DNA of 64,000 nt from a candidate division FCPU426 bacterium (GCA_963847625.1 CAWKAR010000019.1:64001-128000); one strand, 5' to 3'. Shown: positions 15,131 to 58,098, numbered from the stretch's first letter. A program made the numbers and translations. The notes: generated by a model not told the origin, from the letters alone.

Positions 15131-15276
15131 GATCTTTAGCCCGTCCAGGGCGCGAAAAACAAAGAACCTATAGAGACGTTTTTACTGTTTATTCCTCCAA
15201 CTACCTGTAACAACTTTTCAAGGACATTGGTGAATGGCGTGGGGGTATCCGCGGGCGTGAAACGGACGGCTCGATT

Positions 15277-23665: not shown

Positions 23666-24717
23666 CCCCAGTTCAATAACGAAGTGCAACACTTAGACCC
23701 GGCAGAACCCGGGGGTTATCCTAAGTGCTATGAAATCATCCTACAAGCATCTGTCGTTAGCCGAACGTGAAGAAATTTCAGTTTGGAATGCTGAAGGCCT
23801 CTCCCTTCGGGAAATCGCACGCCGTCTGGGCCGTGATGTATCCAGCATTTCCCGAGAACTGAAGCGCAACGCCCCTCCTATACGATCTCGCCGCTACCTG
23901 CCCGCCAGAGCTCACATGCGTGCAGAACACCGAAACCGTCTTTCACGTACTCATTTAAGGCTTAAAAATCCTGAGATTCGCCGTTTAGTACTGCGAGAAA
24001 TACCTCGTGGACTCTCGCCCGAGCAAATTGCCGGTTTTCTTCGCCGGGAGAAACCAAAACTTTCCGTTTCCCATGAAGCCATCTATCAATTCATCTACTG
24101 CGAAGCTCGAAACCTCATTCCTCATCTAGCCCGGGCCCATCGAAAACGTTTGCGACGTTGGCACACTCAAAAACATCGCAAAAGCCATATTCCTCAACGT
24201 ACTCCCATTACCCAACGACCAGCTATCGTTGAAACAAGACAGCAATTCGGGCACTGGGAGGCCGACACCATCATCTCCCGGAAAAGCAAACCCTCACTTC
24301 TGGTTATGGTCGAGCGCAAAAGTCGTCTGGTGAAACTGGCTTGGCTACCTCAAAAATCAGCTTTCCACACTAGAGCCGCAATCAACCGTCGGTTGGTTCG
24401 GATTTCAAAAGGCCTCCGCCGTACCATCACATACGACAATGGCTCCGAAAACGTCGAACATCTCCAGGTGAATCGTGTTTCAGGCACTCGTTCATTCTTT
24501 TGTTTGCCCTTCCACAGTTGGGAGAAAGGTTGTGTTGAAAATACTGCAGGTCTTGTTCGTCGCTTCTATCCCAAGAAAACGGATTTTGCTACTATAACCC
24601 CAGCGAATGTACGACGCGTGGAACGGATCCTAAACCATCGTCCTCGCAAGTGCCTTCGTTTCAAAACGCCGGAGCAGGTCTTTAGTCAAGGTGTTGCACT
24701 TACTGGTTGAATTCAGC
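23666..24717 (+). mobile_element. IS30-family element (type 1), 1052 bp
   Basis: 27-bp imperfect terminal IRs ending AAGTGCAACAC; 3-bp AGA target duplication; transposase inside. Confidence 0.92.
23730..24710 (+). CDS. IS30-family transposase
   Basis: HTH (SLREIARRLGRDVSSISRELKRN), GHWEADT, TYDNGSE, WEKGCVEN, LNHRPRKCL. Confidence 0.95.
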   Translation: MKSSYKHLSLAEREEISVWNAEGLSLREIARRLGRDVSSISRELKRNAPPIRSRRYLPARAHMRAEHRNRLSRTHLRLKNPEIRRLVLREIPRGLSPEQIAGFLRREKPKLSVSHEAIYQFIYCEARNLIPHLARAHRKRLRRWHTQKHRKSHIPQRTPITQRPAIVETRQQFGHWEADTIISRKSKPSLLVMVERKSRLVKLAWLPQKSAFHTRAAINRRLVRISKGLRRTITYDNGSENVEHLQVNRVSGTRSFFCLPFHSWEKGCVENTAGLVRRFYPKKTDFATITPANVRRVERILNHRPRKCLRFKTPEQVFSQGVALTG

Positions 24718-30707: not shown

Positions 30708-31762
30708 CCCGAGTTCCATAAGTAAGTGCAACACTTAGTGTCTGAAGAAGGCCGCATGAATAGGATATGCGGCTATGAAAAAGAAATACAAGCATTTAAG
30801 CGTTGAAGAAAGAGATCATTTATCCGTCTTGAAAGGAAAGGGTCTTAGCCTTCGAGCAATTTCACGCGCCTTGAAGAGGTCTCCTTCCACCCTCTCCAGG
30901 GAACTCAAGCGCAATGCTCCCCCTATCCGTTCTGGTTATTATCTTTCTCATCGAGCCCATCAACGGTATGTTGACCGCAACCAACAACGAGCACGCCGTT
31001 TACGCCTGAAAACAAAACGAATTCGTGCCTACGTCCGTCGTCAATTGAAACGAGGCTGGTCTCCAGAACTCATTTCAGGTCGATTAGGTCACCTACGGCC
31101 TAAGCAAACCATTGGTCCTGAAGCTATCTATCAGTGGGTTTATGCTGAAGCCACTGAGCTGATTCCTTGCCTAGTTCGACACCACCGGCGACGATTCTCA
31201 TTTGGCCATAGCCGTAAGCACGCCAAAAACCATATCCCAGGCCGTGTTTCCATCGATAAGCGCTCCGAGATCGCCAATCAACGCAAGCAATTCGGCCATT
31301 GGGAAACCGACACCATGGTCTCTCGTCAGAGTAAAGTGGCTATGCGGGCTCTCGTCGAGCGTCAAAGCCGTTTTTCCAAGTTGGGAAAGCTCAAACGAAA
31401 GACCGCTCGCCAAATGAGTCATAGCCTCAACCGCGCTTTATGCCGCTTCCCTCAAGACGCCCGCCTGAGTCTGACCTATGACAACGGAACCGAAAACACC
31501 AACCACTTGGAAACCAACCACGTGCTTGGTACAAAATCCTTTTTCTGCGCCCCTTTCCACAGTTGGGAAAAAGGTACGGTGGAAAATACTATCGGTCTTG
31601 TCCGCCGCCATTTGCCTAAAAAGACTGATCTTGCTAAAGTGTCCTTCAAAGAATTCAGGACCATAGAAAGATGGCTCAATAACAGGCCCAGGAAATGTTT
31701 GGGCTTTAAAACTCCGGCGGAAGTCTTCCGGCGAAGTGTTGCACTTACTCCGTGAATTCGGC
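30708..31762 (+). mobile_element. IS30-family element (type 2), 1055 bp
   Basis: 27-bp IRs ending TAAGTGCAACAC; GAT target duplication confirmed by the empty site ACCTGATTTTATTTATC in the other family A copies. Confidence 0.92.
30775..31755 (+). CDS. IS30-family transposase (distinct from type 1)
   Basis: SRELKRN, WSPELI, GHWETDT, TYDNGTE, WEKGTVEN, LNNRPRKCLG. Confidence 0.95.
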   Translation: MKKKYKHLSVEERDHLSVLKGKGLSLRAISRALKRSPSTLSRELKRNAPPIRSGYYLSHRAHQRYVDRNQQRARRLRLKTKRIRAYVRRQLKRGWSPELISGRLGHLRPKQTIGPEAIYQWVYAEATELIPCLVRHHRRRFSFGHSRKHAKNHIPGRVSIDKRSEIANQRKQFGHWETDTMVSRQSKVAMRALVERQSRFSKLGKLKRKTARQMSHSLNRALCRFPQDARLSLTYDNGTENTNHLETNHVLGTKSFFCAPFHSWEKGTVENTIGLVRRHLPKKTDLAKVSFKEFRTIERWLNNRPRKCLGFKTPAEVFRRSVALTP

Positions 31763-45612: not shown

Positions 45613-46134
45613 TTATCTTCGCCCGGAGTCATCCTTTGATTTGGATACCCTGAATTTATAAGGCCCGATGATTTCTTGAAGCATTTCCAATTTGGGTCCT
45701 TCCATCCAGATACCACCGCACTTCTCACATTGATCCAATTCCGTCTTCCCCAACTTCACGGTTTCCATCCGCTTGCCGCAAAAGGGGCAAATGAGAAATG
45801 GCGGCTTTTTGCGGGGCTCAAAAAACGGAGGCGTTTTGTGGTTACGCTCTTCCGTCCCGGTCTGTAATTCCTTCTTCCCCTGTGGCTGTAGCTTCATCAT
45901 CACTTCACGGCGGATGCCCAATCCCTCGCACTCGGCGCAATGAAGCACCTCCTGTGTGTCCAGGGCGGCGGTATAAACCGAGATTTTGCAAATGGGACAG
46001 GAAACCGTCTTCGCCGAAACACTGGCCAATCCCCCGGTTTTAGCCAATGGCAGCCTGCAAGCGGGGCAGACACGTTCCGTACCGTTCAGGGGTTGGTCGC
46101 AGCGGGGGCATTTGGCTGAAGTGGGTTCAGGCAT
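45613..46134 (-). CDS. Multi zinc-finger (zf-TFIIB-like) protein
   Basis: Six CxxC pairs incl. CPFCGKRM...LDQCEKCGGIWM. Confidence 0.75.
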   Translation of the reverse strand: MPEPTSAKCPRCDQPLNGTERVCPACRLPLAKTGGLASVSAKTVSCPICKISVYTAALDTQEVLHCAECEGLGIRREVMMKLQPQGKKELQTGTEERNHKTPPFFEPRKKPPFLICPFCGKRMETVKLGKTELDQCEKCGGIWMEGPKLEMLQEIIGPYKFRVSKSKDDSGRR

Positions 46135-46166
46135 GGAAGTAGGTTCCCCCTTGTGATTGTTCCATT

Positions 46167-46319
46167 TCACTCATGGCGTTCCAGGTGACGGTGGTCGCTG
46201 GCTTTTTCCTTGCCTGCCATCATTCGGACCCCGCCACAACGGTGGCACACGAACTTCCGTTTTTTATGGGCCGAATGGGGCATCTCCCTCATCTTGACCT
46301 TGTATTGCCTGCAGAACAC
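46167..46319 (-). CDS. Small zinc-ribbon-like protein (50 aa), paralog of 55336-55485
   Basis: Manual translation MFCRQYKVKMREMPHSAHKKRKFVCHRCGGVRMMAGKEKASDHRHLERHE; GGGGAGG RBS; GTG start. Confidence 0.65.
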   Translation of the reverse strand: MFCRQYKVKMREMPHSAHKKRKFVCHRCGGVRMMAGKEKASDHRHLERHE

Positions 46320-46544
46320 GCGGCCTCCCCGCATTGGACGAGTTTAGAGCTTGTCTCCCCAAGTGGGAATTTCTAGATTCCCACTAAGTTCCCACTTTTT
46401 CCCACTTTTGAAACCCTCTGATCCTCGTTACGGTACGAGGATCTCCCCTCCGTGGACGGCCTTTCAATGAAGAAATTATGAGAACCCGGCTCATTGACTA
46501 TCGGACGCACACGGAATAATATCCCTCAAACAAGGAGGACCCAT

Positions 46545-46865
46545 ATGCGTTGGTATCACTACGTTTCTTACTTTTTTGGCGGCGCTTTCCTCGCCAATGC
46601 GGTACCCCACTTCGTCAGCGGTATCACCGGCCACCCCTTCCAAAGCCCTTTCGCCTCCCCGCCTGGGGTGGGATTGTCCTCCTCCACCGTAAACGTGCTG
46701 TGGGGCTCCTTCAACCTCGCCGTGGCCTATTGGTTCTTGTGCCGAGTCGGGACGTTCGACCTGCGCCGGACGGTGCCTGTCCTGGTGGCGGGGCTGGGGG
46801 CGTTACTAATGGCCGTGATGCTGGCCCATGCGTTTGGCCGTTTCTACGGAGGGCTTCTCCCTTAA
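46545..46865 (+). CDS. Small conserved-looking membrane protein
   Basis: AGGAGG RBS; FFGGAFLANAVPHFVSG...FQSPFASPPG.GLSS; three TM segments. Confidence 0.75.
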   Translation: MRWYHYVSYFFGGAFLANAVPHFVSGITGHPFQSPFASPPGVGLSSSTVNVLWGSFNLAVAYWFLCRVGTFDLRRTVPVLVAGLGALLMAVMLAHAFGRFYGGLLP

Positions 46866-46968
46866 TTCGTTAAAAGTTCCCCCTTCCCACTTCTCAAGTT
46901 CCTTTTTTCCAATCCCCCTGTCACTTGCTTAAAAAATAAGGAATCAGGCACCAATATCCATTATTCCT

Positions 46969-46998
46969 TTGTCCACCTTGGGTCCCCATCGTGGACAA
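46969..46998. repeat. 30-bp site S3
   Basis: TTGTCCACCTT-GGGTCCCC-ATCGTGGACAA. Confidence 0.85.
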
Positions 46999-47007
46999 CT
47001 AAAATCT

Positions 47008-47784
47008 TTATTCTTTTGAACGCCATATACGTGCTATCAGCAATTCCATTCCCCTGATTAGCCAAAATACACAAAAAATAATTAATAAATAAACGAGAAA
47101 GATATTTGCTGAAAGAAACGGCAATCCAAGAAAACTTCCATACGCCTCAACAATATTATCGAAAGGTTTAAATTTCGGAGATTCATAAGAAGTTGCATCT
47201 TTTAATGTTTCATATTTTTCAGAACTAAAATCCTTTTTCTCACTGGCTCGAATTTCTAAATCAAGATCCTTATAAAGCCATTCACCTTTAAACCCTTTAT
47301 CTTTTCTCCAACTCCATCTGGTCCTTGATATATCGAGATAAACACCATTTTTTTCTAGTCTAAACGGACCCTTGGAATTGGGATAATGTTTGCTAAATTC
47401 TTCTTCCGTGTTATTGCTGTAATATCCCAAAGGCCCATAAAAGTATCTGGTAAAAACTTTAGGATACTTCTTTGCGCGTTCATCCGAATAATTGAGAAGA
47501 TCAAAACCTACACTTGTTTCCCCACCCTCAATACGGAAAATTAAAATCTCTTTTGATTTTTTCTTTAAGAAAACTGTTTGTATCCAATCACGTAATAAAT
47601 TATTACCATTTTTTTCAACAAGAAACGTACATGGTAGGTCGTATGACCGGCTGGGAACGGTAGCTTTTTCCAATTCACTGCGTTTATCAAAATAGTTAGT
47701 GGTATTTGTCGCAATCCATAAAACCACAAATAGAAAACTTATTAAAACAAAAGCCCTCATTGCCGTTCTGAGAAATTTCTTCAC
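47008..47784 (-). CDS. AT-rich hypothetical membrane-anchored protein
   Basis: 258-aa ORF with N- and C-terminal TM helices, GGAG RBS. Confidence 0.7.
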   Translation of the reverse strand: MKKFLRTAMRAFVLISFLFVVLWIATNTTNYFDKRSELEKATVPSRSYDLPCTFLVEKNGNNLLRDWIQTVFLKKKSKEILIFRIEGGETSVGFDLLNYSDERAKKYPKVFTRYFYGPLGYYSNNTEEEFSKHYPNSKGPFRLEKNGVYLDISRTRWSWRKDKGFKGEWLYKDLDLEIRASEKKDFSSEKYETLKDATSYESPKFKPFDNIVEAYGSFLGLPFLSANIFLVYLLIIFCVFWLIRGMELLIARIWRSKE

Positions 47785-47887
47785 AATTACATCTCCAATT
47801 CAATAAAGCCGGTTTAAACATAAATAATTATGAATACAAAAAAATGCCTTGCGGGTTTAACTCAAAATTTCGATACACAACCAACTA

Positions 47888-47917
47888 TCGTCCAATCAGG
47901 GTCCCCGTCGTGGACAA
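47888..47917. repeat. 30-bp site S4
   Basis: TCGTCCAATCA-GGGTCCCC-GTCGTGGACAA. Confidence 0.8.
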
Positions 47918-48007
47918 AGGAATAATGGTTAATGGTCTCTGCTCCACGGTGCGGAGAGTGGATCCTGACCCTGTATTTTCCGCATAGGGGCCTGCGGAAC
48001 CTAGGGG

Positions 48008-48427
48008 CTAGGTTTTCCAGGGATTGATCAGGTGGATCCCAAGCCCTTGAAAATGCCGGGTATTGCGTGTGGCTAATGTAGCTTTGCAGGCTAAAGCGAT
48101 CCCGGCGATCTGGAGATCTCGAATCTCAACCGGACGCCCTATTTTTCTTTGTTGGGCCGCGATCGAGGCGGACGCCCGGGCCGCGGCAAGGTCAAATGGA
48201 AGGACCCGGCCTTCCAAATCCTCCTCCAAAGCTTGGTTAAAAAACTCCTCCAGCTGATGCCGCCTACGCCCCCCCGCCAGGTTCTCGATGCCAAACCGTA
48301 TTTCAAATACCGTGATGGTCGTAGTCCAAACCGATTCAACGGACTGGCGATCCAACCATGAAACGATCGCAGGAACCGGTTCCCGAAGCATCAATGTGGA
48401 AAGGATATTCGTATCGAGCAGGATCAT
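48008..48427 (-). CDS. vapC: PIN-domain toxin (VapC/FitB type)
   Basis: MILLDTNILS, E, DLQIAGIA, LATRNTRHF, INPW. Confidence 0.93.
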   Translation of the reverse strand: MILLDTNILSTLMLREPVPAIVSWLDRQSVESVWTTTITVFEIRFGIENLAGGRRRHQLEEFFNQALEEDLEGRVLPFDLAAARASASIAAQQRKIGRPVEIRDLQIAGIALACKATLATRNTRHFQGLGIHLINPWKT

Positions 48428-48675
48428 GGGACCAGATCGGCGGGCTGGGCTTGTTGGCCCCCCAATTCGGGGATTTCCTGGGTCAGCCCTATCTTGGCAA
48501 ACCGCGCCTTAAACCTGGCGCCCAATGGTGTGGGGACGCGGCCCCCATCCTTCCCTACCGCGTTTCTCAAGATATCCCGCACTTCTTCCTCCGTGCTGTG
48601 CCCATTCTTCCGGGCCCTTTGGCTCAGTTTCATCTTCACGCCGTCATCTAGATTCCGAACGATAATTTGGGCCAT
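48424..48675 (-). CDS. FitA-like ribbon-helix-helix antitoxin
   Basis: MAQIIVRNLDD...RARKNGHSTEEEVRDIL; ATGA overlap with toxin. Confidence 0.9.
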   Translation of the reverse strand: MAQIIVRNLDDGVKMKLSQRARKNGHSTEEEVRDILRNAVGKDGGRVPTPLGARFKARFAKIGLTQEIPELGGQQAQPADLVP

Positions 48676-48702
48676 GGGTTCCCTCTGCGAAGTAGGGTTA
48701 AG

Positions 48703-48734
48703 TGATATGACGATATCATGATATCATGATATCA
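48703..48734. promoter_or_regulatory. Putative TA operator: four tandem TGATATCA-type palindromes
   Basis: TGATATGA CGATATCA TGATATCA TGATATCA about 30 bp upstream of the antitoxin start. Confidence 0.6.
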
Positions 48735-48815
48735 ATTATTTGTTATTCCCGCAAGGGGTCCAAAAACCCCTTCATTCTATGCCCCGAAAAGGGGCTGCCC
48801 CCTTTCCGTTTTTAC

Positions 48816-48845
48816 CTGTCCACGATGGGTCCCCGCAGTGAACAA
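48816..48845. repeat. 30-bp site S5
   Basis: CTGTCCACGAT-GGGTCCCC-GCAGTGAACAA. Confidence 0.8.
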
Positions 48846-48855
48846 CTTTCATATT

Positions 48856-50625
48856 CTACTTCGTGTGTTTTTCAATCCAATCGGTTGTATTTTCCAGCAC
48901 TTCCGGCGCAAATGTTCCAGGGTCATCAATCCATTCCTCTGGATCGCCTGTAATGGTGTTTTGGAGAACGTGACTCAACCCCGGGAAGACTTTGGAAGTA
49001 AATTCGGGATTCTTCCCTTCCTTTAAAGCTTTTTCGATGGCTGGAAAATTAACGTCGGGGGGAACCATTAAATCTTTCTCACCGCTTAAAGCTAAAACAG
49101 GACAAATAACCTGTTCCAAGGCAGGCCTTGGATCGTATTTCTCCCAATGTTTGTAATAAGAAAATGGATAAGGATATTCAGCCCATTTCGGCAGTGTGGC
49201 TTGAAGTTTTATTAATTCTTTAGATTTGTATTTCTTCGCCATTTCTTCCTGGATGAACTTTCTTATTTTGGATTTGGCTTCATCTTCGTTCTTGGAGCTG
49301 ACAACTTCATCCATAATTCGTTTATATATCCTTGTATTAAAAGCAATGAATTCGTCGCTACGCCTCTCCGTGTTCCAAAACCTTAGCCACTGAATAAGGT
49401 CTTGGCTTTTGCCATCCACACCGATTCCTCCCATCAAGACGATAAAGGCAACATCCTTTGATCGCGACGCTACCAGGGGCGCACTATAACTCCCTTCGCT
49501 TTGGCCGATCACACCGGCTTTAAGGGGATTCACTTCTTTTCGATTCTTCAAATATTCAAAACCGGCAAGGGCGTCGTCGGCAAAATCCCCAACTGTGGCC
49601 TTATCGAAATCTCCCGAGGAGCTTCCCACCCCGCGTTTGTCGTAACGCAATACCGCGATGCCATGCCGTGTCAGGTAGTCCGAAAGAACAAGGTGGCTAT
49701 GTGGCCAAATATAACCATCCCGGTTAGGTCTACCCGAACCAGTGATAAGTAATACCGCCGGGAAGGGTTCGCCATGCTTGGGAAGGGTCAGGGTTCCGGC
49801 CAAGGTGACACCGGCCTTTTCATTGGTAAAAGTAACCTCTTCTTCCCGGTAAGGGAAAGGCCTTTTGGGCTCATAATTCGCCGGCTGTTGGACCACCTTC
49901 CGGTTAAACTCCACAGTGAAATCAAAAACCTTCTTTTCCCCGGCCTTCCATTCCCAGGTTTTATCGGTCGTTTCCTTGTGGGAGAGGGTGACATAGAATC
50001 GCTCTTTCCATTTCGAACTATAAACCGTCGCGTGAAGCCCTTGGGTCTTGAGCTGTACGGTTAAGTTCCCAAACGCGCGCGAAGGCCCCAGCCATAAAGG
50101 CCCGTCGGAATGCGCCAAATCAATTTCCTCGTCCAGGGGCTGAATCTCAGGCAGGGTCCCCGGGGTTGAGTCCAACTGGTATTTACTCCCCGCCCAGTCG
50201 TCGTATAAAAAATCTAATTGCGCCGCGACACGGAGGATTTCGACCGGCCCAGTGGGGATGAGTGTGTACCGGATATGAATTCCGGATTTCAGGACCTTAA
50301 TCGAAGTTTTTAAGTTTGCCGATACATTATTCGGCAGGCTGGCCTTCACTTGGATATCGGGAGCTTTGCCGGTGATATCGAATGCTTGCCGGCCATTGAA
50401 GCACTGCCAGTCTTGAGATAAGTAAATCAATGGTTTTATATACATGACTTGCTTCATGTTTTCCAAAATGTTGATCGAGCCGTTGTCCAAAATTTGAACA
50501 TGAAGGGGCTTATCATCAACGGTCATGGCGCTGTTGACGGAATCCGCCCACATAAGGCTGGGGAAAAATAGGATTGTCCCGAAAAACAATATTAAAACGT
50601 ATGTGAATTTTTTATAACTTTTCAT
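48856..50625 (-). CDS. Secreted alpha/beta hydrolase with N-terminal beta-rich domain
   Basis: LAGTLTLP, LITGSG, RYDKRGVG, GQSEG, GEKDLMVPP, GLSHVLQ. Confidence 0.85.
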   Translation of the reverse strand: MKSYKKFTYVLILFFGTILFFPSLMWADSVNSAMTVDDKPLHVQILDNGSINILENMKQVMYIKPLIYLSQDWQCFNGRQAFDITGKAPDIQVKASLPNNVSANLKTSIKVLKSGIHIRYTLIPTGPVEILRVAAQLDFLYDDWAGSKYQLDSTPGTLPEIQPLDEEIDLAHSDGPLWLGPSRAFGNLTVQLKTQGLHATVYSSKWKERFYVTLSHKETTDKTWEWKAGEKKVFDFTVEFNRKVVQQPANYEPKRPFPYREEEVTFTNEKAGVTLAGTLTLPKHGEPFPAVLLITGSGRPNRDGYIWPHSHLVLSDYLTRHGIAVLRYDKRGVGSSSGDFDKATVGDFADDALAGFEYLKNRKEVNPLKAGVIGQSEGSYSAPLVASRSKDVAFIVLMGGIGVDGKSQDLIQWLRFWNTERRSDEFIAFNTRIYKRIMDEVVSSKNEDEAKSKIRKFIQEEMAKKYKSKELIKLQATLPKWAEYPYPFSYYKHWEKYDPRPALEQVICPVLALSGEKDLMVPPDVNFPAIEKALKEGKNPEFTSKVFPGLSHVLQNTITGDPEEWIDDPGTFAPEVLENTTDWIEKHTK

Positions 50626-50660
50626 AAAGCCACCCCTTTACTGTCAGAAATTGATTGCTT

Positions 50661-50690
50661 TTGTCCACTCCGGCTCCCCGCCGTGGACAA
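50661..50690. repeat. 30-bp site S6
   Basis: TTGTCCACTCC-GGCTCCCC-GCCGTGGACAA. Confidence 0.85.
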
Positions 50691-50709
50691 ATATTAGTAC
50701 CGGCCATTT

Positions 50710-51696
50710 TTATGGGCTGAATTTTTCCACCCGATTGTTGCCCGTATCCGAAACATAAATGTAACCAGCGCCATCCACCGCGATGAAGGTGGGAGCGTTG
50801 AAAAAACCGGGCGCGAGCCCATAGGTCCCGAATTGGGAAAGGTAGCGCCCCGAACTATCGAATACTTCCACCCGGTCATTGCCCGAATCCACCACATAGA
50901 CCTTGGCGTTGTCCGGGCTGAGGGCGACGCCGATGGGCCCGTTGAGTTGGCCGTTCCCCGCGCCTGTCCCGGTATTCCCGCCCAAATAGCCCAAGGAGAC
51001 GCCGGTGGCGCTGAAAATTTCCACACAGTTGTATCCACCGGTCGAGACGTAAAGGGTCGTGCCGGCGGAGTTCACCGCGATGTCCGGGGAGTTATAGAGG
51101 TCGCTATAGCACGACCATTGGGCCAGGTAGGTGCCCCCGCCGTTAAAGGCTTTCACCAGGTAATTGCCGGGATCCACCACATAAATGGTCGTGCCCGCCG
51201 AGTTCACCGCGATTCCCTCGGGCCCCCAATAGAACTGTCCGTTCCCGGTCCCATAAGACCCCCACTGGCCTTCAAAGGCGCCTAAGCCGCTGAAGGCCTC
51301 CACGCGATAGTTGCCGTTGTCCGCCACATAAACCGTCGTGCCGGAGGAATTCAGGGCGATGCACTGGAAACCGTTACATCCAGAAAAATTCCCGGGCCCC
51401 GACCCATAGCCGCCCCACTGGGTAAGGTAGGCACCGGAACCGTTGAGGACTTCCACCCGGCCGTTACCCTCATCCACCACGTAAAGGGTCGTGCCAGCCG
51501 AATTCACAGCGATACCCTGGGGATTGATGAACTGCCCATTGCCTGAACCCCGCGTGCCCCATTCGGCCAGATAATTGGAAGGTATGGCGGGTGTGTTGAA
51601 GGGACCTCCCGGTGACGTGTTCTTGGCGCAGGAGGAGAGTTCCAATGCCGTCCATCCCCCGCATAATAAGAGGAGCCCGGTGAATACCCGCATCAT
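50710..51696 (-). CDS. NHL-repeat beta-propeller lipoprotein
   Basis: Lipobox LSSC; six WG..G.GNGQF..P.GIAVNSAGTT.YVVD.GN.RV repeats. Confidence 0.85.
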   Translation of the reverse strand: MMRVFTGLLLLCGGWTALELSSCAKNTSPGGPFNTPAIPSNYLAEWGTRGSGNGQFINPQGIAVNSAGTTLYVVDEGNGRVEVLNGSGAYLTQWGGYGSGPGNFSGCNGFQCIALNSSGTTVYVADNGNYRVEAFSGLGAFEGQWGSYGTGNGQFYWGPEGIAVNSAGTTIYVVDPGNYLVKAFNGGGTYLAQWSCYSDLYNSPDIAVNSAGTTLYVSTGGYNCVEIFSATGVSLGYLGGNTGTGAGNGQLNGPIGVALSPDNAKVYVVDSGNDRVEVFDSSGRYLSQFGTYGLAPGFFNAPTFIAVDGAGYIYVSDTGNNRVEKFSP

Positions 51697-51725
51697 TTCA
51701 TTTCCTTTCTTGAAGTGTTCCATAT

Positions 51726-53714
51726 TCAATTAAACCCAAAACGGATGCCCGCCAAAAGGGGGATATCCTGCCCGATGACGCCGTCGGCGAAGATAAAATT
51801 ATATTTCCCCTCCACGAACAGGGAATCCAAGGGGTCAAAGGGCACTTCCAAACCCGCCCCCAGAGCCATGTCGAAGTTGCCCACTTGGACGGGGCCGAAA
51901 ACGCCGCCCCAGGAGACTTCCACATCCAGCCCCGCGCCCGCCGACAGGTATGGCCTGATCCCCTTTTGAAGGAGCAGGTACCGGACCGTCGGAAGGAACA
52001 AGAGCTCGTGGTCCCCGATGGACCCCACGTAATTGGTGCCGGAATAATCGAAATCCTCCACGTCCAACTGGAGGGCCCAGCCGTCGTTGAATCCATAGCC
52101 GACGCTGAATTTCCCGCCGCTTCCCAGGCCATAGGCCGTTTGCCAATTTTGGGTTGGAAGGTCGATTCCCCCCGCCAGTTCCACGAATATATGCCCCGGG
52201 GCCGAAACCTCAAGTTGAGGCCCAAGATTTGGGGTGGTTTGGTCCCGGGATCCGGAGAAGTTGAATTTCAAACCCGTCTCTAAAACCGCATAACCGTTCT
52301 GATAGGGGTTGGTGAAATTACGGAGGTTGGACGCGTTATAGTCCTTCAGTTCAATGAATAGGTCCAAGGTTGGGTTCAAATATAAAGCCATGCCGGCCCC
52401 AAATTGCGCGGCATTATTCTCTCCATAAAAATCGGGGCCATCGGGGAATTCCAGCCCAAGCCCGCCGAACAGGTAAGGCTGGAATGGGTCGGAGATGACA
52501 AGGGTGTATTGAAGGTTCGCCAGGACCGCCCAATCCCCCGGGAATCTTTCCAAATTGGTGTAAAAGGAAAAATGATTCAGAAAGTCGTATCCGGCCGCGA
52601 TGGAAGTGGTATTGACCTGCATATCGTTGACCGTCGAATAATAGTCGCCCGAAGCTAAAGTGAATCCCAAACCCATTTTAATGAAAAAATTACCGTTGGA
52701 CGGGGGCGTTCCGCTCTTGTTATCCCCGCCGTGATCGCCCCCAAGGTCGAGGATCACCCCGGCGTTGATGGGATAATCGATGGCGATCACCTGTTTGTTC
52801 GGGTAAAAGTAGTTGGGATTACCCATGTAAAATTGGTTCTGGGCGAAGGATTCAAGAATAAAGTTGCCTTTCGCCTCGACGAATGTGCTCCAGCCCCCGC
52901 CCAGCTTTAACTGCGCACCCAGGCTTCCCTGTAACAGGTGATCGGTATTGTAGAAACTATTATCAGCAAAGACACCGACACCGGCTCCCAAATAAGGCCT
53001 GAAGGGTCCGTCTCCGAACGCATAGCGGGCCGAGAAGGTCGTTTCTAAACACTTGACCTCGTAGTTGCGTCTATAGAAAGAATCATATTGTGATAAGAAA
53101 TACATGGCTTCCGTCAACCAAAGGGACCAGTGGTCATCCCAGGCGTAACCGAAACCTAGTTCCCCTCCCAAACCCACCGTGCCGGGGTTTTTAAAGTTTT
53201 GACCGAAGAATTCCAAGCCTGGGCCCAGTTGGAACTGAAAATTTTTAAAAGGATCGTTCGGGGCCTTCGGCGTGGGAGTCGGGACCGCCAAGTCCTCAAG
53301 GGTTCCATTCGGTTTCCGATCCGGGTCCAGGTCCGGCGGTGGCGGCATTTGGGCTTCAGCCTTTCCCTCAAAATAAGCGCCATCATCGTTTCTCGGCTTC
53401 CTCGGCTCCGGTGTTTTCAGCCAATCCACGAAGCTTTTCAACCGGGGATTGTCCCCGTTTAGTTTCAGGCTCTCTTGGCATTGCGCCAGGGCATCCTGGT
53501 TATCATTCATCTGGTATGCGCAATAACCCAGCAATTGGTGGGCTTTCCAATTGCCGGGGCTCAACTGGATGGCCCGTTTCAGGTTTGTGACGGCGGCCGA
53601 ATAGTCATTGCCGTAGTATTGGCTCAAAGCCAAATTGAAATAGTCCCCGGCATCGGCCGCGAAAACATTTAAGGCCGATAGGTAGAAAAGCACCGCCCAA
53701 ACGAACCTTCTCAT
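51726..53714 (-). CDS. TPR protein with three tandem outer-membrane beta-barrel-like domains
   Basis: Signal peptide, TPR, Pro linker; three units each with [R/Q]PYL.[A/G]G.G and ending AGVILDL / TGLKFNF / AGIRFGFN. Confidence 0.7.
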   Translation of the reverse strand: MRRFVWAVLFYLSALNVFAADAGDYFNLALSQYYGNDYSAAVTNLKRAIQLSPGNWKAHQLLGYCAYQMNDNQDALAQCQESLKLNGDNPRLKSFVDWLKTPEPRKPRNDDGAYFEGKAEAQMPPPPDLDPDRKPNGTLEDLAVPTPTPKAPNDPFKNFQFQLGPGLEFFGQNFKNPGTVGLGGELGFGYAWDDHWSLWLTEAMYFLSQYDSFYRRNYEVKCLETTFSARYAFGDGPFRPYLGAGVGVFADNSFYNTDHLLQGSLGAQLKLGGGWSTFVEAKGNFILESFAQNQFYMGNPNYFYPNKQVIAIDYPINAGVILDLGGDHGGDNKSGTPPSNGNFFIKMGLGFTLASGDYYSTVNDMQVNTTSIAAGYDFLNHFSFYTNLERFPGDWAVLANLQYTLVISDPFQPYLFGGLGLEFPDGPDFYGENNAAQFGAGMALYLNPTLDLFIELKDYNASNLRNFTNPYQNGYAVLETGLKFNFSGSRDQTTPNLGPQLEVSAPGHIFVELAGGIDLPTQNWQTAYGLGSGGKFSVGYGFNDGWALQLDVEDFDYSGTNYVGSIGDHELLFLPTVRYLLLQKGIRPYLSAGAGLDVEVSWGGVFGPVQVGNFDMALGAGLEVPFDPLDSLFVEGKYNFIFADGVIGQDIPLLAGIRFGFN

Positions 53715-53762
53715 AATATTCTTCCCCTCAATAACGAACTACGTTTTATGAGCTATTAATCT

Positions 53763-53792
53763 TTGTCCACTTTGGCTCCCCGTCGCGGACAG
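53763..53792. repeat. 30-bp site S7
   Basis: TTGTCCACTTT-GGCTCCCC-GTCGCGGACAG, abutting the stop codon at 53793. Confidence 0.85.
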
Positions 53793-54806
53793 CTATTTTT
53801 TATGTTTCATCCAACGTTTCACCGAATTCACATTTTCATTATGGGCTAGGTCGCCGTTCAATTCTTTTATTCGATCTCTGCACAATTGCGTCACGACCGA
53901 ATTTTCGATAACGACGTTATCTTTGACGCCCTTGGTTTTTACCATCTCCAGAAGTCGTACCCAGGCATCGCGGTAAAGCTCCCAACCCTTCTGGTCTTCT
54001 TCTAAACCGGGATCATACTTTGGATAATTTGAAAACCCCTTATTTTGGGTTTCGAACAATTCTTTTTCTTCTATAATCTTTTTAAACGCGGTCTGGAGAG
54101 ATTTATTCAAATTTCTTCTCGCTTCTTGGCATTCCTTTAAGGTCGACACATTCAATTGACCCTTCAGCAACCAATCTTTGATCTTGTCTTGATGAAGGGC
54201 TTTCCCATAAGTATGTCTCGGGTGTTCATCGCTTATACCCAAGATATCTTCTTCCATAAGGTCCAATACAGCCCTTTTTCCATCGTTTATCTCCAGAGTT
54301 TCGGCTTCATCTTCTATGATTTTCAATTCTTTCTTCTCCATGTCATTCAAGCGGCCCTTGAAAGTTTCGACCTTTCGGTTTAATTCCTGGTCATTGAGAT
54401 CCGTTTGGATGTCGTTGCAATCATATGATTCATCACTATCCATGGGGATGTCGTTACAGGTCAATCGAGGATAGATTTTTTGGGGGGTTTTCAACCTCTC
54501 CTGAATGATCTTCTCTAGATTTTGGTATCCAACTCCCCAATAGTTGAGCTTATTGTCTGCCTCTTCGAATAGTTCCTGGGCTTTTTGGGGATTTCTTTCC
54601 ACGCCATCCCCGTTGAGATACATCAAGATGAGGAAGGGGTAACCTTTCCCAATATCATCTTTTTGGAAACAATCCATGGCTTTGGAATAATCAACAGGCA
54701 CACCGATCCCGTAATAATATTTCAAACATTCCTTATCCAGGGCTTGGAGTTTGGTCGTGACAAGAAAAAAGACCATTATCAAAAAAAGTGTTATTTTGGA
54801 TTTCGT
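53793..54806 (-). CDS. Sel1-like repeat / LprI-like secreted protein (apparent ACG start)
   Basis: YYGIGVPVDYSKA, MYLNGDGVERNPQKA, QKGWELYRDAW...RIKEL. Confidence 0.65.
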   Translation of the reverse strand, partial: TKSKITLFLIMVFFLVTTKLQALDKECLKYYYGIGVPVDYSKAMDCFQKDDIGKGYPFLILMYLNGDGVERNPQKAQELFEEADNKLNYWGVGYQNLEKIIQERLKTPQKIYPRLTCNDIPMDSDESYDCNDIQTDLNDQELNRKVETFKGRLNDMEKKELKIIEDEAETLEINDGKRAVLDLMEEDILGISDEHPRHTYGKALHQDKIKDWLLKGQLNVSTLKECQEARRNLNKSLQTAFKKIIEEKELFETQNKGFSNYPKYDPGLEEDQKGWELYRDAWVRLLEMVKTKGVKDNVVIENSVVTQLCRDRIKELNGDLAHNENVNSVKRWMKHKK

Positions 54807-54816
54807 AAATAGCTCC

Positions 54817-54846
54817 TTGACTACGAAGGCTCCCCGTCGTGGACAA
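54817..54846. repeat. 30-bp site S8
   Basis: TTGACTACGAA-GGCTCCCC-GTCGTGGACAA. Confidence 0.8.
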
Positions 54847-54857
54847 ATATCCTAAGT

Positions 54858-55235
54858 TTAAAAAGTAAAGCGTTCCTTCAACCAGGGTGGGCTCTTTTCC
54901 GTCAGGCACTGGATCACAATGACATGTCCTTCAGGGTCTTCAAAAGATACAGCCTGTAAACCCAAATGGGAGTCCGTGGGGCCGGTGAACCGGATTCCTT
55001 TTTGCTTTAGACTTGCTACCAGAGCCGGGAGGTCATCCGTGATGAAGGAAACCTGGGACTTGCCGGGTTGATGAACCGATGTATCGAAATCCACTCCAGG
55101 CCAACCCGAGTCAAAGACATTTAACCCGGCTGGTTCAGTTAGATTGAGTTTGAAGCCCAATACTTCCTCATAGAATTTCCTGCTCCCGCTTGGATCTTTT
55201 GTATAAAGCTCAACCTCATGAAGTTTGAAACGCAT
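54858..55235 (-). CDS. VOC/glyoxalase-family protein
   Basis: LHEVELYTKD..SRKFYEEVLGF, FEDPEGHVI; GAGGAGG RBS. Confidence 0.88.
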   Translation of the reverse strand: MRFKLHEVELYTKDPSGSRKFYEEVLGFKLNLTEPAGLNVFDSGWPGVDFDTSVHQPGKSQVSFITDDLPALVASLKQKGIRFTGPTDSHLGLQAVSFEDPEGHVIVIQCLTEKSPPWLKERFTF

Positions 55236-55290
55236 ATTCCCTCCTCACAAATACTTTCCCATTCATGAAAGCTTCTTCCCGACTTTTTCC

Positions 55291-55320
55291 TTGTCCACGA
55301 TGACTCTCCGCCGCGGACAA
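55291..55320. repeat. 30-bp site S9
   Basis: TTGTCCACGAT-GACTCTCC-GCCGCGGACAA. Confidence 0.8.
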
Positions 55321-55335
55321 CTTTAAAACCTTATA

Positions 55336-55485
55336 TCAAACCCGCTCCCGGCGACGCCGGTCGCCGGCTTTTTCTTTGCCAGCCATCATGCGGGCTCCCC
55401 CGCACCGGGGGCACACGAACTTTCTTTGTTTATGGGCCGAATGGGCCATTTCCCTCATCTTGATCTTGCATCGCCTGCAGAACAT
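55336..55485 (-). CDS. Small zinc-ribbon protein (49 aa)
   Basis: Manual translation MFCRRCKIKMREMAHSAHKQRKFVCPRCGGARMMAGKEKAGDRRRRERV; two CxxC motifs; GGTGAGG RBS. Confidence 0.7.
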   Translation of the reverse strand: MFCRRCKIKMREMAHSAHKQRKFVCPRCGGARMMAGKEKAGDRRRRERV

Positions 55486-55508
55486 ACCCTCACCCCGTCG
55501 CGGATAAC

Positions 55509-55937
55509 CTATATTTTCTTTTTCAAATAATATCTCACATGCCGTTTTTGAAAAGGTGCCAGTTGCCCGAAAAGACGATATCCCTGTTTTTTATAAAATC
55601 CCGGGGCTTGGAAACTAAAAGTGCTTAAATAAACCTGCTTACAGCCCTTTTTTTTTGCTATAGCTTCCGCTTTGCGAAGAAGCCGTTTTCCTAATCCTTG
55701 GCCACGATATTTTCGATCGACACATAGGATATCCACACAAAGCCATCCCAAATAGGTATATCCGGTCACCCCCCCTACGAGCATTCCCTTTCCGTTTTTG
55801 GCCTCAAGGCCAACTGCCTTCCAATTTGAAATCCCGCTTTTTTTACTATTGAAAGGGCTGATTTTGCTGATGAGCTTATTTCGTAATTCCGTATATTTCC
55901 GGGGGCCAACTTGAATGATGGCGGAGGATGGCTTCAA
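55509..55937 (-). CDS. GNAT-family N-acetyltransferase
   Basis: V..KYRGQGLGKRLL acetyl-CoA motif, TFSFQAPGFYKKQGY. Confidence 0.9.
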   Translation of the reverse strand: MKPSSAIIQVGPRKYTELRNKLISKISPFNSKKSGISNWKAVGLEAKNGKGMLVGGVTGYTYLGWLCVDILCVDRKYRGQGLGKRLLRKAEAIAKKKGCKQVYLSTFSFQAPGFYKKQGYRLFGQLAPFQKRHVRYYLKKKI

Positions 55938-56025
55938 AAGATTTCTCTTTAATTTGGAATTTATCGTTTTGAATGGGTATCAAGAACCTGGATTTTGCCG
56001 CGGGCACCCCAAAGGGCTATTGCCC

Positions 56026-58098
56026 TTATTTAACGCCTGAACTTTTCTTGGCTTTTTCAAAATCGTCCTTGGACCAGACTTCCGCCACCCAATGGTTTCC
56101 GATTTTCCTGAAGGCTTTTTTGGCGTCCTTGCCCTTTTTGTTCTGGTAATCCAGCCAGGCCAGGCGGTTCCAAATATCCCAATTGTGGGGGTCCAGTTTT
56201 AAAAGCGTCTGGTAGGCTTTCACCCGTTCCTTGAACACCTTCGGTTTTTTCACGAATTCCTTCTTTTCGGAATCCTTGGAAAGCCCGTTTTGGGCCGTGT
56301 CGGAGGAGGCCAAAACCACGTAAGGATAAAGGGCCCTTAATTCCTTGTCTTTCCCGGAAATCTTCTTGGCCAAATCCAGGACAGGTTTTGTTTTTCCCGC
56401 CAGCGCCGCCCAGGCCAGATAGTTTTTCCACTCGCCGAGATCTCCCGGCGATGCGGTCAGGTAATTCCCGTAGCTCTTGGCGAAATCTTTCCAATAGGGC
56501 GAATTTTTCACTTTCTCCCGCGTCTCTTTCCGCCATTGAGCCAGTCCCGCCTCCGACTGTTCCAAGCAAAGCACGTGGAAATCAGCGGCGCATGGAATGA
56601 AAAACAAGGCGGGAAACCTTTTGTTGAACTTTCGGGCGAACTCGAACATTTCCTTCAAGGAGCCGTTCCATTTCGGATTGAGGTAATCCATGTAAACGGT
56701 GTAAGCCTCATAATCGTTGGGATCCAGCCGCAGGACTTTTCCGAAGTCATCTTTCATGGTTTCCTTGGCCAGTTCCGCCGCGTTGCCGTAGGCCACCAGT
56801 TGGCCCCAGGCCCTTCCGTAATGCGGGGTCAGGTCGACAGCCTTCTGGGCGTATTTCAAACTCTCCTCGACACGCTTTTTAAAAAGTTTCAACGCCTTCG
56901 GCGGGACGTCCCTGGTCCAATCAGTGCCCCGAGCCTCCCAGGCCAAGGAAAGCGTCAGTTGGGCCAGTTGAATCCAGGCGTTGGGGTTTTCCGGATGCGA
57001 TTGGGTCCAGTTTTTCAACAGCGTGACGGCTTCATCGTTATAGCCTTTGCCCTCCAAGGAGTAGGCGGCATAACGGTACCAATCGGGATTGTCGTTGTCC
57101 CTTTGCAACTCCTCCAGGGACAGTTTCAGGGCTTCGTCGTACTTTTTCAGCGCGTAAAGCTCGTAAACGTAGTCGAACTTGTAAAAGGAGTTATCCGGGT
57201 ATTTCCGGACGAGCGGTTCGATCATGTCCAGATGGTTGGTCCGCTCCCGGAAGTCCGAAATTCCAAGCCAACGGTCGACCAAATAGTGGCACTTGGAGTT
57301 CTTGGCGAGGATATTGTCCCACTGGTTCACTAATGAATATCCGCCCTGCCGGATCAGGCTTTCCAGGAAGGCTGTGCGTTCCAAATCCTTGTCGTTTAAG
57401 AACACGGGGCGCTTCAAGAAAGCCGCCTGTCGCGCGTTGGGTTTGAACCCAACCCAGTCATGGAGGCGGGAAGCCATCCAGCCCGGCGCCGAATGAAGCT
57501 GATTGGCCGTGAATTTTTTCTTGTATTTTTTCAGTGGATGGGAGCCGGTAAAACTCAAAGTGATGGTGTAACCCGTTTTCGCCCGGACCAAGGTTCCACT
57601 CGCGTTATCCGGGGTCGCGAACATGTAAGCCAGTTGTTTGGAAAATTGCTCGTGATATTGCCCGAGCGCCGAGTCGAACAGCCTGAAGTTCTGGAAAAGG
57701 GTGCCGGCGTTGGGCAGGTCAAAAATAGATTCAGGAAGGTAGGTCGCCTGCTCCATGGCCAAGTAACTCAGAAAACTTCCCAGGGCGTTAATCCGGCCCA
57801 TTTTGTCCTTGAGGGGGAAAATCAAGGGGCAATGCGGGAGGGTTTGCCCTTTAACCCGGATGTCTTCGATCATATTGATTATTTCTTGGCTGGGGCGCTG
57901 ACCCTCGGGCGCGGCTTCTTCTTGCTTCTTTTTTACCAGTTCCCTCTCACGAATGGCCTGATCCTTTTCCCTGGCGGATTTCAAAATTCTGGCCGCTTTT
58001 TTCTCGATTAGAACTTGCTTTTGATGGATGTAACCAAGCTCGGCGGCTATAACGATGGCGCCAATTCCCACGGCGATAAAAATGAGTTTCCAATCCAT
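56026..58098 (-). CDS. Membrane-anchored TPR protein with DUF4034-like region
   Basis: N-terminal TM, multiple TPRs, LAWEARG.DW and LNPKWNGS motifs. Confidence 0.7.
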   Translation of the reverse strand: MDWKLIFIAVGIGAIVIAAELGYIHQKQVLIEKKAARILKSAREKDQAIRERELVKKKQEEAAPEGQRPSQEIINMIEDIRVKGQTLPHCPLIFPLKDKMGRINALGSFLSYLAMEQATYLPESIFDLPNAGTLFQNFRLFDSALGQYHEQFSKQLAYMFATPDNASGTLVRAKTGYTITLSFTGSHPLKKYKKKFTANQLHSAPGWMASRLHDWVGFKPNARQAAFLKRPVFLNDKDLERTAFLESLIRQGGYSLVNQWDNILAKNSKCHYLVDRWLGISDFRERTNHLDMIEPLVRKYPDNSFYKFDYVYELYALKKYDEALKLSLEELQRDNDNPDWYRYAAYSLEGKGYNDEAVTLLKNWTQSHPENPNAWIQLAQLTLSLAWEARGTDWTRDVPPKALKLFKKRVEESLKYAQKAVDLTPHYGRAWGQLVAYGNAAELAKETMKDDFGKVLRLDPNDYEAYTVYMDYLNPKWNGSLKEMFEFARKFNKRFPALFFIPCAADFHVLCLEQSEAGLAQWRKETREKVKNSPYWKDFAKSYGNYLTASPGDLGEWKNYLAWAALAGKTKPVLDLAKKISGKDKELRALYPYVVLASSDTAQNGLSKDSEKKEFVKKPKVFKERVKAYQTLLKLDPHNWDIWNRLAWLDYQNKKGKDAKKAFRKIGNHWVAEVWSKDDFEKAKKSSGVK

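Follow-up and report, generated by a model that had tools for sequence, protein, structure and literature searches.

A cassette array at the locus

The DNA analysed here, which we call the window, is a stretch of 64,000 nucleotides (G000:C19:64001-128000) from the genome of a candidate division FCPU426 bacterium (G000, the source genome, 4.43 Mb). Between positions 46969 and 55320 it carries seven copies of a 30-bp sequence that separate unrelated gene modules, or cassettes, and we conclude below, with a probability of about 0.9, that these belong to a cassette system driven by site-specific recombination. An earlier note made from the sequence alone had described seven full copies in the same orientation; scanning the window with the pattern TTGTCCACNNNGGSTCCCCGYCGYGGACAA at a tolerance of three mismatches recovered all seven at the same positions, all on the + strand, with no match in the rest of the window and none in 100 shuffles. 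The sites are S1 (46969..46998; TTGTCCACCTTGGGTCCCCATCGTGGACAA, one mismatch), S2 (47888..47917; a CCAAT-type left arm, two mismatches), S3 (48816..48845), S4 (50661..50690; identical to the pattern), S5 (53763..53792), S6 (54817..54846; two mismatches) and S7 (55291..55320), with S3, S5 and S7 likewise found by the pattern scan. When the seven were aligned with 80 bp of flanking sequence, conservation was restricted to the 30 bp. Their central 8 bp, the core, reads GGGTCCCC in the first three sites, GGCTCCCC in the next three and GACTCTCC in the last, the sharing of cores between neighbours to which the note had drawn attention. From the end of the site to the stop codon of the next minus-strand open reading frame (ORF), S1 to S6 leave 9, 90, 10, 19, 0 and 11 bp, so that the close coupling to stop codons (0-20 bp) described earlier is found in five of six cases, at 0-19 bp.

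The cargo was assigned to families by Pfam. S1 is preceded by a gene for a small membrane protein (46545..46865), the only + strand gene of the array and inverted relative to its copy in a genome of the same genus (G001). The remaining cargo lies on the minus strand: a 258-amino-acid (aa) gene of 34% guanine plus cytosine (GC) with no Pfam family (47008..47784); a PIN toxin with a FitA-like ribbon-helix-helix antitoxin (48008..48675; PIN at 48008-48427, antitoxin at 48424-48675); a 589-aa alpha/beta hydrolase (48856..50625); a two-gene cassette (50710..53714) of an NHL-repeat protein (50710-51729) and a TPR protein (51726-53714); a Sel1/LprI gene of 41% GC (53793..54782); a member of the VOC/glyoxalase family (54858..55235); and, beyond S7, a GNAT acetyltransferase (55509..55937), of which only a remnant stands at the same place in G001. 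S7 itself is followed by a 157-bp cassette remnant without an ORF (55321..55477), homologous to 46200-46311 and to contig C3 of G001. The array starts behind a chromosomal 690-aa TPR gene (56026..58098, minus strand), which is co-oriented with the cassettes and 72% identical in G001. The Pfam assignments agree with the toxin-antitoxin (TA), GNAT, VOC and membrane-protein cargo named in the earlier note, and GC contents of 34% to 59% along the array bear out its remark on modules of visibly different base composition. Its suggestion that the enzyme is encoded elsewhere is in keeping with our finding no tyrosine or serine recombinase gene in the window; the genome-wide matches on contig C19 fall outside it.

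Three further copies had been listed as degenerate or half sites. By eye, mainly core and right arm persist in these, and none of them passes a scan at seven mismatches. The first (46312..46341, + strand) retains the core and part of the right arm, and the second lies at 46430..46459 (+). The third (55478..55507, +) has a good right arm, GTCGCGGATAA, ends 1 bp from the stop codon of the GNAT gene and is also present in G001. A possible lone right-arm half-site, GCCGCGGGCAC (55997..56007, +), weak and seen by eye, lies 19 bp past the stop codon of the TPR gene that heads the array. A 140-bp segment occurs at 46200-46341, again at 55366-55507, and at G001:C3:894493-894719, each copy ending in a decayed site; the left copy in the window overlaps a 55-aa ORF and lies beside the gene of a 185-aa zinc-ribbon protein (45613-46170). 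Pairs of decayed sites 55 bp apart were seen in two relatives (L317:945-1029 in G010 and L314:2139-2223 in G005), and the window pair at 46312 and 46430 is 118 bp apart. Such close pairs look as if a cassette had been emptied or never filled.

Architecture of the site

In its most symmetric form the site reads TTGTCCACGACGGG-TC-CCCGTCGTGGACAA, that is, 14+2+14. Among 411 site contexts, position 15 is T in 397 and position 16 is C in 403, and positions 12-14 pair with 17-19 in 86-96%, so that the core is palindromic except for the central TC. Two 14-bp arms around an invariant, asymmetric TC therefore read as a better description of the sequence than the 11+8+11 layout first proposed. Crossover sites of serine recombinases consist of inverted half-sites around a central asymmetric dinucleotide, and the 30-bp site likewise has inverted half-sites around a conserved, non-palindromic dinucleotide.

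The palindrome could also be read as a signal in folded nucleic acid. On that view it would be a regulatory element or one like the repetitive extragenic palindromic (REP) sequences, serving as an operator or as a stabiliser of mRNA 3' ends, and homologous recombination would shuffle the modules passively. The element is indeed extragenic, palindromic and located behind stop codons, and as RNA four of the seven window sites fold better than shuffles (z -2.9 to -4.3). The other three fold no better, and compensatory change between the arms is wanting: position 8 is A in 91 of the 411 sites and the compensating T at position 23 is present in just 3 of these 91, while positions 9-11 pair with 20-22 in about half of all sites. 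Sequence rather than structure is conserved, and there is no structure-selected hairpin. None of the 19 terminator-like predictions in 46000-56200 coincides with a site. The genome does contain three genes of Y1 transposases, the type of the REP-associated tyrosine transposases (RAYTs), and none is flanked by sites; the pairing of a compensated hairpin with a RAYT gene between REPs was thus not found, and we set the Y1/RAYT transposases aside as the enzyme.

Nor do the sites resemble integron recombination sites. An attC is 57-141 nt long, carries R''-L''...L'-R' boxes with RYYYAAC/GTTRRRY ends, and is recombined as a folded strand whose structure is kept by covariation. Here conservation spans 30 bp and is weak beyond, RYYYAAC/GTTRRRY ends are lacking by eye, the arms do not covary, and the window stretch has no Rfam match at E <=1, which upholds the earlier statement that the sites are not attC. 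A true integron, or a cluster of attC sites lacking integron-integrases (CALIN), with an unusually short attC would account for the layout of the array and for its cargo of TA pairs, GNAT and VOC proteins. However, none of 41 genomes encodes an integron integrase above the 265-bit cut-off of TIGR02249 (best score 92.5 bits; the recombinases of the source genome reach at most 79.8 bits), and exchange maps to the centre of the site, as described below, and not to one end. We consider an integron of this kind scarcely credible. The site was also considered as the chromosome's dif and rejected, since in genomes holding no more than one to three copies these still lie past a gene with the geometry of the arrays.

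Arrays across the genome and the order

The observation that no full copy lies outside the 9.6-kb stretch applies to the window and not to the genome, in which the pattern has 32 matches at three or fewer mismatches and about 43 distinct sites at five or fewer, on 17 contigs. These form roughly ten clusters, including ones on C3, C13, C16, C19, C20, C55, C61 and C63, several of them situated at contig ends. Within each cluster the sites are co-oriented, and in all clusters + strand sites lie just past minus-strand genes and minus-strand sites past + strand genes. We examined this geometry in 224 sites from 51 loci of 8 genomes. The stop codon of an ORF reading toward the right arm lies within 150 bp of 191 of the 224 sites, at a median gap of 17 bp. 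Of 172 pairs of neighbouring sites separated by less than 6 kb, 165 point the same way and 7 are opposed, and the inter-site segments (n = 165) have a median length of 806 bp. A motif strewn over the genome in both orientations, which the earlier note had named as evidence for a REP or regulator site, is thus not what is seen, and neither do the sites alternate as in bacterial interspersed mosaic elements (BIMEs). The window stretch is one of many orphan arrays and not a single locus.

Other arrays carry mostly TA pairs (PIN, MazF, RelE/MqsA, HigBA, Phd, TacAT and Gp49/HI1420), along with DinB, nitroreductase, katG, alpha-galactosidase and NHL proteins. Genes heading arrays include hflX (C55) and a 2283-aa GH8 gene (C63), as well as the 690-aa TPR gene of the window.

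The site is present in 29 of 32 genomes of the order, with 0-122 matches each and none in reversed-pattern controls; it occurs in 21 of the 24 other genomes of the family and in the single genome of the sister family. No site was found in 15 genomes from eight other families of the phylum. The site is confined to one lineage, an order of uncultured peat and soil bacteria. Among the matches listed for the exact pattern in a genome collection there were metagenome-assembled genomes only, one of them titled Candidatus Firestonebacteria; exact-pattern scans also match metagenome contigs, and such a scan of viral contigs gave no match.

Mobile elements of other kinds occur near the sites. A transposase of the insertion sequence (IS) family IS110, with a 79-aa partner ORF, lies 1.5-2.4 kb from sites at G000:C55:4578-5932 and C21:14837-16191; some members of this family target palindromic repeats. 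A group II intron reverse transcriptase/maturase lies inside an array cassette of G002 (L046:5062-6372, contig C2), and a related 489 bp occur in G001 (L076). This placement resembles that of group IIC introns, which home to integron attC sites.

Reassortment of cassettes at the core

If the sites are points of exchange, two sites may share one flank and differ in the other. We compared 40 bp on each side of the 224 sites. Among 24,753 pairs, none had both flanks in common, 14 shared the left flank alone and 11 the right alone, and in alignments of the flank-sharing pairs the homology reaches or enters the site and then ends. A stricter comparison used 421 distinct contexts, including metagenome loci, with one side required to be 90% or more identical over 60 bp and the other no more than 45%; the left flank alone was common in 21 pairs, the right alone in 17, and both in one. 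Pairs sharing the right flank differ at site positions 1-11 and pairs sharing the left flank at positions 20-30, while positions 12-19 are nearly unchanged. The side-specific differences of the arms around a constant core argue that exchange takes place within positions 12-19. They also imply that, on exchange, the left arm stays joined to the 5' side of the following cassette and the right arm to the 3' end of the gene before it.

The same cassettes recur in unrelated places. Two arrays of G002 contain a 1215-bp cassette at 100% identity, and a 798-bp cassette is shared at 99.7% identity by G002 and G022, two genomes of different genera; a near-identical cassette in two genera signifies recent gene flow at the level of single genes. 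Many other cassettes are 77-92% identical across genera over their full length. A MazF-type pair forms a site-bounded cassette in four genera, and three genera carry different cassettes next to the site that lies past hflX.

Comparison of the window with G001 gives a similar picture. The flanks of the array are conserved but lie 81 kb apart in G001. Copies of the PIN/FitA cassette (87% identical) and of the alpha/beta hydrolase cassette (83% identical) occur at another locus and on another contig of G001, respectively. The array that G001 carries past the 690-aa TPR gene is shorter and comprises no more than the GNAT remnant, the 140-bp segment and the gene of the small membrane protein. Between the two genomes, homology breaks within S7 (55291), whose counterpart in G001 keeps the right arm and part of the core and differs in the left arm and the left neighbour. 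Four peat-metagenome runs from one study contain 8-10% of the stretch's words, in low-depth contigs that leave much of it uncovered. One such contig agrees with the window over 48594-48834, up to the final base of the core of S3, and then continues into a different right arm and flank, so that the PIN/FitA side is joined to a new flank exactly past the core. Other contigs span sites in the window arrangement, one of them across S5.

Several observations weigh against recombination at the core as the whole explanation. Differences also fall on the wrong side of it, at positions 8-11 in 2-4 of the 21 left-sharing pairs and at positions 20-21 in 2-3 of the 17 right-sharing pairs; the exchange point is therefore not located to the base, and exchange by homologous recombination inside the 30 bp is conceivable. 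The copies of two window cassettes in G001 lack intact sites, with decayed ones 560-700 bp away, and a simple model does not account for these relocated cassettes. No excision circle, empty site or joint was seen in the low-depth, partially covering metagenome contigs, a result with no bearing on absence.

The wrong-side differences would suit a REP-like or regulatory palindrome with passive shuffling. Such an element does not explain cassettes of 0.8-1.2 kb that are near-identical in unrelated contexts with just 30 bp common on each side. Relatives without the site have wholly different flanks rather than a clean 30-bp insertion, and, as shown below, a recombinase gene is tied to the arrays. 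Together with the lack of covariation and the co-orientation of sites, these points make that explanation improbable in our judgement. Of the observations that the earlier note held to be contrary to an array, a module order fixed in relatives is not seen, as modules differ between relatives, and the breakpoints of homology fall in the core; these grounds thus fail to refute it. Reassortment at the core and the variable modules support a gene-cassette array bounded by a short, double-stranded recombination-type site other than attC.

Tyrosine recombinases of the order

The same cassette system could be run by a tyrosine recombinase, be it an Xer-like enzyme acting as in a counterpart of the pdif modules or an integrase of about 370 aa, and the serine recombinase described in the next section would be no more than a frequent neighbour or a target. 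This was close to the earlier proposal of a dif- or loxP-like site (11+8+11) with exchange dependent on core homology. An 11+8+11 layout with a conserved 8-bp core suits such enzymes, as does exchange that maps to the core. The source genome has 18 matches to PF00589, none beside a site cluster.

The integrases of about 370 aa number seven in the source genome (57-67% identical to one another) and occur in 1-8 copies in 20 of 24 family genomes, being rare outside. One lies 5 kb from the largest array of G002 and another 11 kb from the only array of G004. However, tRNA genes adjoin both; at least two of the seven in the source genome are beside tRNA genes, as ordinary island integrases are, and a third is about 1 kb from two tRNA genes. 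Given this tRNA-side location, and because none abuts a site, we retain them as a minor candidate only. In G004, an island of about 11 kb and 33-44% GC (G004:C1:1321395-1332700; L078:3395-14700), with an integrase of this type at one end and tRNA-Asp at the other, splits the region bearing the cassette sites.

An Xer-like gene of 345 aa is distributed much as the site is. It is conserved across the order, single-copy in 23 of the 24 other family genomes and in the sister family, and its relatives elsewhere are at most 36% identical. Of 15 genomes from outside the order, 14 encode canonical XerD-type proteins (at least 274 bits), as against none of 26 from within it, and the order seems to have replaced XerC/XerD by one Xer-like recombinase of 345-380 aa. 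Xer-like and 370-aa enzymes are, moreover, the sole recombinase types in the site-rich genomes G011 and G022. Against a role of the Xer-like enzyme in the arrays, its gene has a palindrome of its own directly upstream: a 10+6+10 sequence, TTCGGTATAA-TTACAG-TTATACCGAA, present by eye in 13 of 13 genomes and found by a scan at eight mismatches in 10 of 13 (G000:C60:100840-100865; loci L087 and L092-L103). Its inner arms are ATAA/TTAT, its outer arms co-vary between genera, and it is unique in the source genome. From its sequence it looks like the enzyme's own dif, unrelated to the 30-bp site, and gene and palindrome together look like a module of the xerS/difSL type; the palindrome contains TATAAT and could alternatively be an operator. 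No 30-bp-like site lies within 6 kb of the Xer-like gene. We rejected the Xer-like recombinase as the enzyme on account of its different palindrome and the lack of a nearby site, although its distribution fits.

Two other candidates were discarded. A 417-aa tyrosine recombinase on the contig of the window, 27 kb past it (G000:C19:154823-156073), is confined to the genus: it is 100% identical to G001:C3:914368-915618, is absent from the 39 others searched, and looks like a recently shared mobile element. Trios of adjacent tyrosine recombinase genes (G000:C20:38768-42101, G001:C4:40745-43148 and G013:C19:76396-78795) lie 2-6 kb from sites in G001 and G013 and are missing from many site-rich genomes.

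A Pfam search of 148 ORFs of at least 170 aa in and around the arrays of relatives (148 of 334 cluster representatives) found no tyrosine or serine recombinase; it found one group II intron reverse transcriptase and one rve_3 transposase. Neither in the 51 loci, nor among these ORFs, nor in 452 kb of metagenome flanks does a tyrosine recombinase abut an array. With no such enzyme linked to the arrays, a different dif-like site for the Xer-like protein, and a core that is palindromic but for the central TC and so reads better as 14+2+14, the tyrosine recombinase of the earlier proposal did not find support, and we consider it unlikely.

A short serine recombinase adjoining arrays

On contig C61 of the source genome, a 277-aa ORF with Resolvase and Recombinase domains (G000:C61:35482-36312; PF00239, E 2e-22; PF07508, E 3e-11) is followed after 8 bp by the first site of an array. 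When the order was searched, orthologues of 71-81% identity were recovered in open frames of 281-329 aa in G002, G018, G042 and G045, as were 3' fragments of the gene in G019, G042 (three) and G046. We examined 10 copies, 5 intact and 5 reduced to 3' remnants, leaving aside three fragments at contig ends of the source genome (C24, C57 and C63) and full-length paralogues of at most 57% identity. In 9 of the 10, an array of 2-5 sites opens with a co-oriented site (six or fewer mismatches) placed 11-55 bp past the end of the coding sequence; the remaining copy, in G018, has a decayed left half-site only. The junction consists of the C-terminal codons, a small palindrome, TCAGTAGTACTGA, and then the site, whose left arm is often GTGTTCCTTTT. 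A motif scan added three remnant-plus-site junctions, in G002, in G022 and on one metagenome contig. The remnants begin at varied residues and all keep the 3' end and the site, a pattern expected of decaying platform genes. This is the only recombinase gene physically tied to the arrays. A split-gene model, in which the gene crosses its own att site, was rejected: the stop codon falls 8-34 bp before the site, and no C-terminal half lies past the arrays.

The sequences of the protein form 19 clusters at 70-100% identity, all of 275-283 aa; by precomputed Pfam annotation each carries PF00239 and PF07508, and homologues beyond these clusters are at most 60% identical. All 19 sequences keep the motifs YVRVSS (YVRVSS..Q) and DRLYRN without change, and dN/dS is 0.08-0.17 in 7 of 10 pairs, the other three being saturated. 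The predicted structure (pLDDT 70.7, a moderate value) matches large serine integrases on att sites. It aligns as a whole, over 328 columns, to 4bqq, a crystal of the N-terminal-plus-recombinase-domain part, and its recombinase domain superposes on DNA-bound 4kis over 134 columns at 2.4 A root mean square deviation; a sequence search of the PDB matched the catalytic domain only. The hallmarks of a large serine recombinase are thus present as far as the catalytic domain with its nucleophile serine and PF07508 are concerned, and the zinc ribbon and coiled-coil are absent. None of the 19 clusters carries an annotation of the zinc-ribbon family PF13408, and the ORF stops about 20 residues before the CxxC that starts the zinc ribbon of a 507-aa paralogue. 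These sequence features indicate a real protein under selection, and one that looks functional.

The gene also tends to occur where sites are many. All 5 genomes in which the gene is intact fall within the 9 site-richest of 32 (hypergeometric probability about 6 in 10,000, with the kin not independent), and none of the genomes with 0-3 sites has it.

Against this enzyme stand the following points. The association of the gene with high site counts is confounded by kinship between the genomes and by the quality of the assemblies. The site-rich genomes G019, G006, G023, G022 and G011 (99% complete) have remnants only or nothing. No recombinase was found in 60 overlapping metagenome loci (452 kb) searched with a panel of the source genome's tyrosine and serine recombinases. 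From the last two observations it follows that the enzyme, if this is the one, works in trans, or is frequently lost or unassembled. The gene sits at the distal end of its arrays and is convergent with them, unlike intI. The array of the window has neither the gene nor a remnant, and would accordingly be an orphan array served in trans. Finally, the activity of a large serine recombinase that lacks the zinc ribbon is putative. Having weighed these points, we consider that the short serine recombinase probably runs the cassette system.

Some 0.5-0.8 kb upstream of the gene for the short serine recombinase there is a conserved element of about 260-300 nt (G000:C61:34689-34989; L028:8690-8990). 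Further copies occur on C55 of the source genome (8242-8521, 10528-10761, 14101-14332 and 21238-21447), and there are two each in G042 (L324) and G045 (L325). In four sequences, 26 of 90 predicted pairs keep their pairing through two-sided changes, and the element has no Rfam match; it looks like a structured RNA or a single-stranded DNA element. The copies on C55 lie among small genes, including an ArdC-like anti-restriction gene, and the element resembles the single-strand promoters of plasmid leading regions.

Proposed mechanism

We propose that the 30-bp sequence acts as a double-stranded recombination site made of two inverted half-sites and a nearly invariant asymmetric centre. A cassette would then comprise the right half-site just past the stop codon of its gene and the left half-site ahead of its 5' end. 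Recombination between two direct sites would release a circle with one complete site, and the circle could re-enter any other site. Co-oriented arrays would arise in this way past chromosomal genes, among them the 690-aa TPR gene, hflX and the giant GH8 gene. The most likely enzyme, acting in trans, would be the serine recombinase of 275-283 aa (G000:C61:35482-36312); it would cut at the central TC, whose asymmetry would set the polarity of exchange. The window stretch may be regarded as an array without a recombinase of its own, the counterpart of a CALIN.

With slightly less confidence than we attach to the enzyme, we favour the view that the whole is an analogue of the integron built on another enzyme class, in which a minimal serine recombinase and the primary site adjoining it form the platform for the capture, storage and shuffling of single-gene cassettes that share one 30-bp, 14+2+14 site, and which has seeded many arrays per genome across the order. 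The part of the literature available to us held no account of such a serine-recombinase or integron-like cassette system, nor one under Firestonebacteria; searched by the letters of the site, it returned chance 11-mers in unrelated papers and no 19-mers.

Comparison with known systems

The likeness to integrons and CALINs is extensive. In both systems single-gene, mostly promoter-poor cassettes each bring a site, co-oriented arrays vary in content between relatives, the cargo includes TA, GNAT and VOC genes, a recombinase gene stands by a somewhat aberrant first site, and many arrays are orphans. Here, in contrast, there is no IntI; a 30-bp double-stranded palindrome takes the place of the folded attC of 57-141 nt, and exchange is central. 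The enzyme is likely a serine recombinase whose gene is convergent at the distal end of the array, and many arrays per genome stand behind ordinary genes.

Large serine recombinases (phiC31, Bxb1, A118/LI) share with the short enzyme PF00239 and PF07508, the fold seen in integrase-att complexes and in 4bqq, and sites made of inverted half-sites around a central dinucleotide. In those enzymes a zinc ribbon and a coiled-coil, which are missing here, tell attP from attB and set the direction of the reaction. Their sites are attP/attB pairs of 40-50 bp, whereas those described here are 30 bp and all alike. Staphylococcal cassette chromosome (SCC) elements, mobilised by CcrAB, form tandem stacks that adjoin a chromosomal gene at its 3' end, and the present arrays are alike in this. 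The cargo differs: single-gene segments of 0.5-3 kb without a recombinase, as against phages or islands of 20-60 kb.

In the pdif (dif) modules of Acinetobacter plasmids, small accessory modules lie between short palindromic sites that are acted on by the host's XerC/XerD (PMC7399989, PMC12907356). As here, the enzyme is encoded elsewhere and acts in trans, and modules recur in different contexts. The pdif sites resemble the host dif and alternate in orientation, unlike the sites of the order, which are co-oriented and bear no likeness to its dif-like palindrome.

The sites of small serine invertases and resolvases (hix, gix) are 12+2+12 with a 2-bp crossover; the enzymes bind through a C-terminal helix-turn-helix and act on a fixed segment. 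Two inverted half-sites and an asymmetric 2-bp centre that gives polarity are common to both. The present sites, however, are direct repeats that separate numerous unrelated cassettes, and the short enzyme has the recombinase domain of the large serine recombinases as its DNA-binding part. REP/BIME elements with their RAYTs are, similarly, short palindromes in extragenic positions past genes, and a genome holds many copies of them; the present sites differ from them in the absence of arm covariation, the co-oriented arrays, the reassortment at the site and the Y1 genes that are not flanked by sites.

To our knowledge, integrons are the only established platform that gathers single genes as cassettes, and the tools in use detect IntI and attC. 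Here an unrelated site of 30 bp, and probably an enzyme class that is unrelated too, give the same architecture, and surveys of the IntegronFinder type would miss such arrays. If our reading is correct, cassette-based gene capture is a convergent solution and more widespread than thought, and the accessory genomes of poorly known soil phyla would become easier to read. The recombinase would be a natural enzyme for testing the role of the zinc ribbon and coiled-coil in large serine recombinases and, with its short symmetric 30-bp site, a potential tool for genome engineering.

Other features of the window

Outside the array, an IS30-like transposase of 326 aa (HTH_38 and rve) is encoded at 23730-24710 and again at 30775-31755. 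Six more copies occur on C13, C3 and C21 of the source genome, several of them within 0.2-1.1 kb of sites. Positions 9611-20406 are occupied by two giant minus-strand ORFs of 1839 and 1709 aa, over which GC skew is +0.33 to +0.56 and AT skew reaches -0.5.

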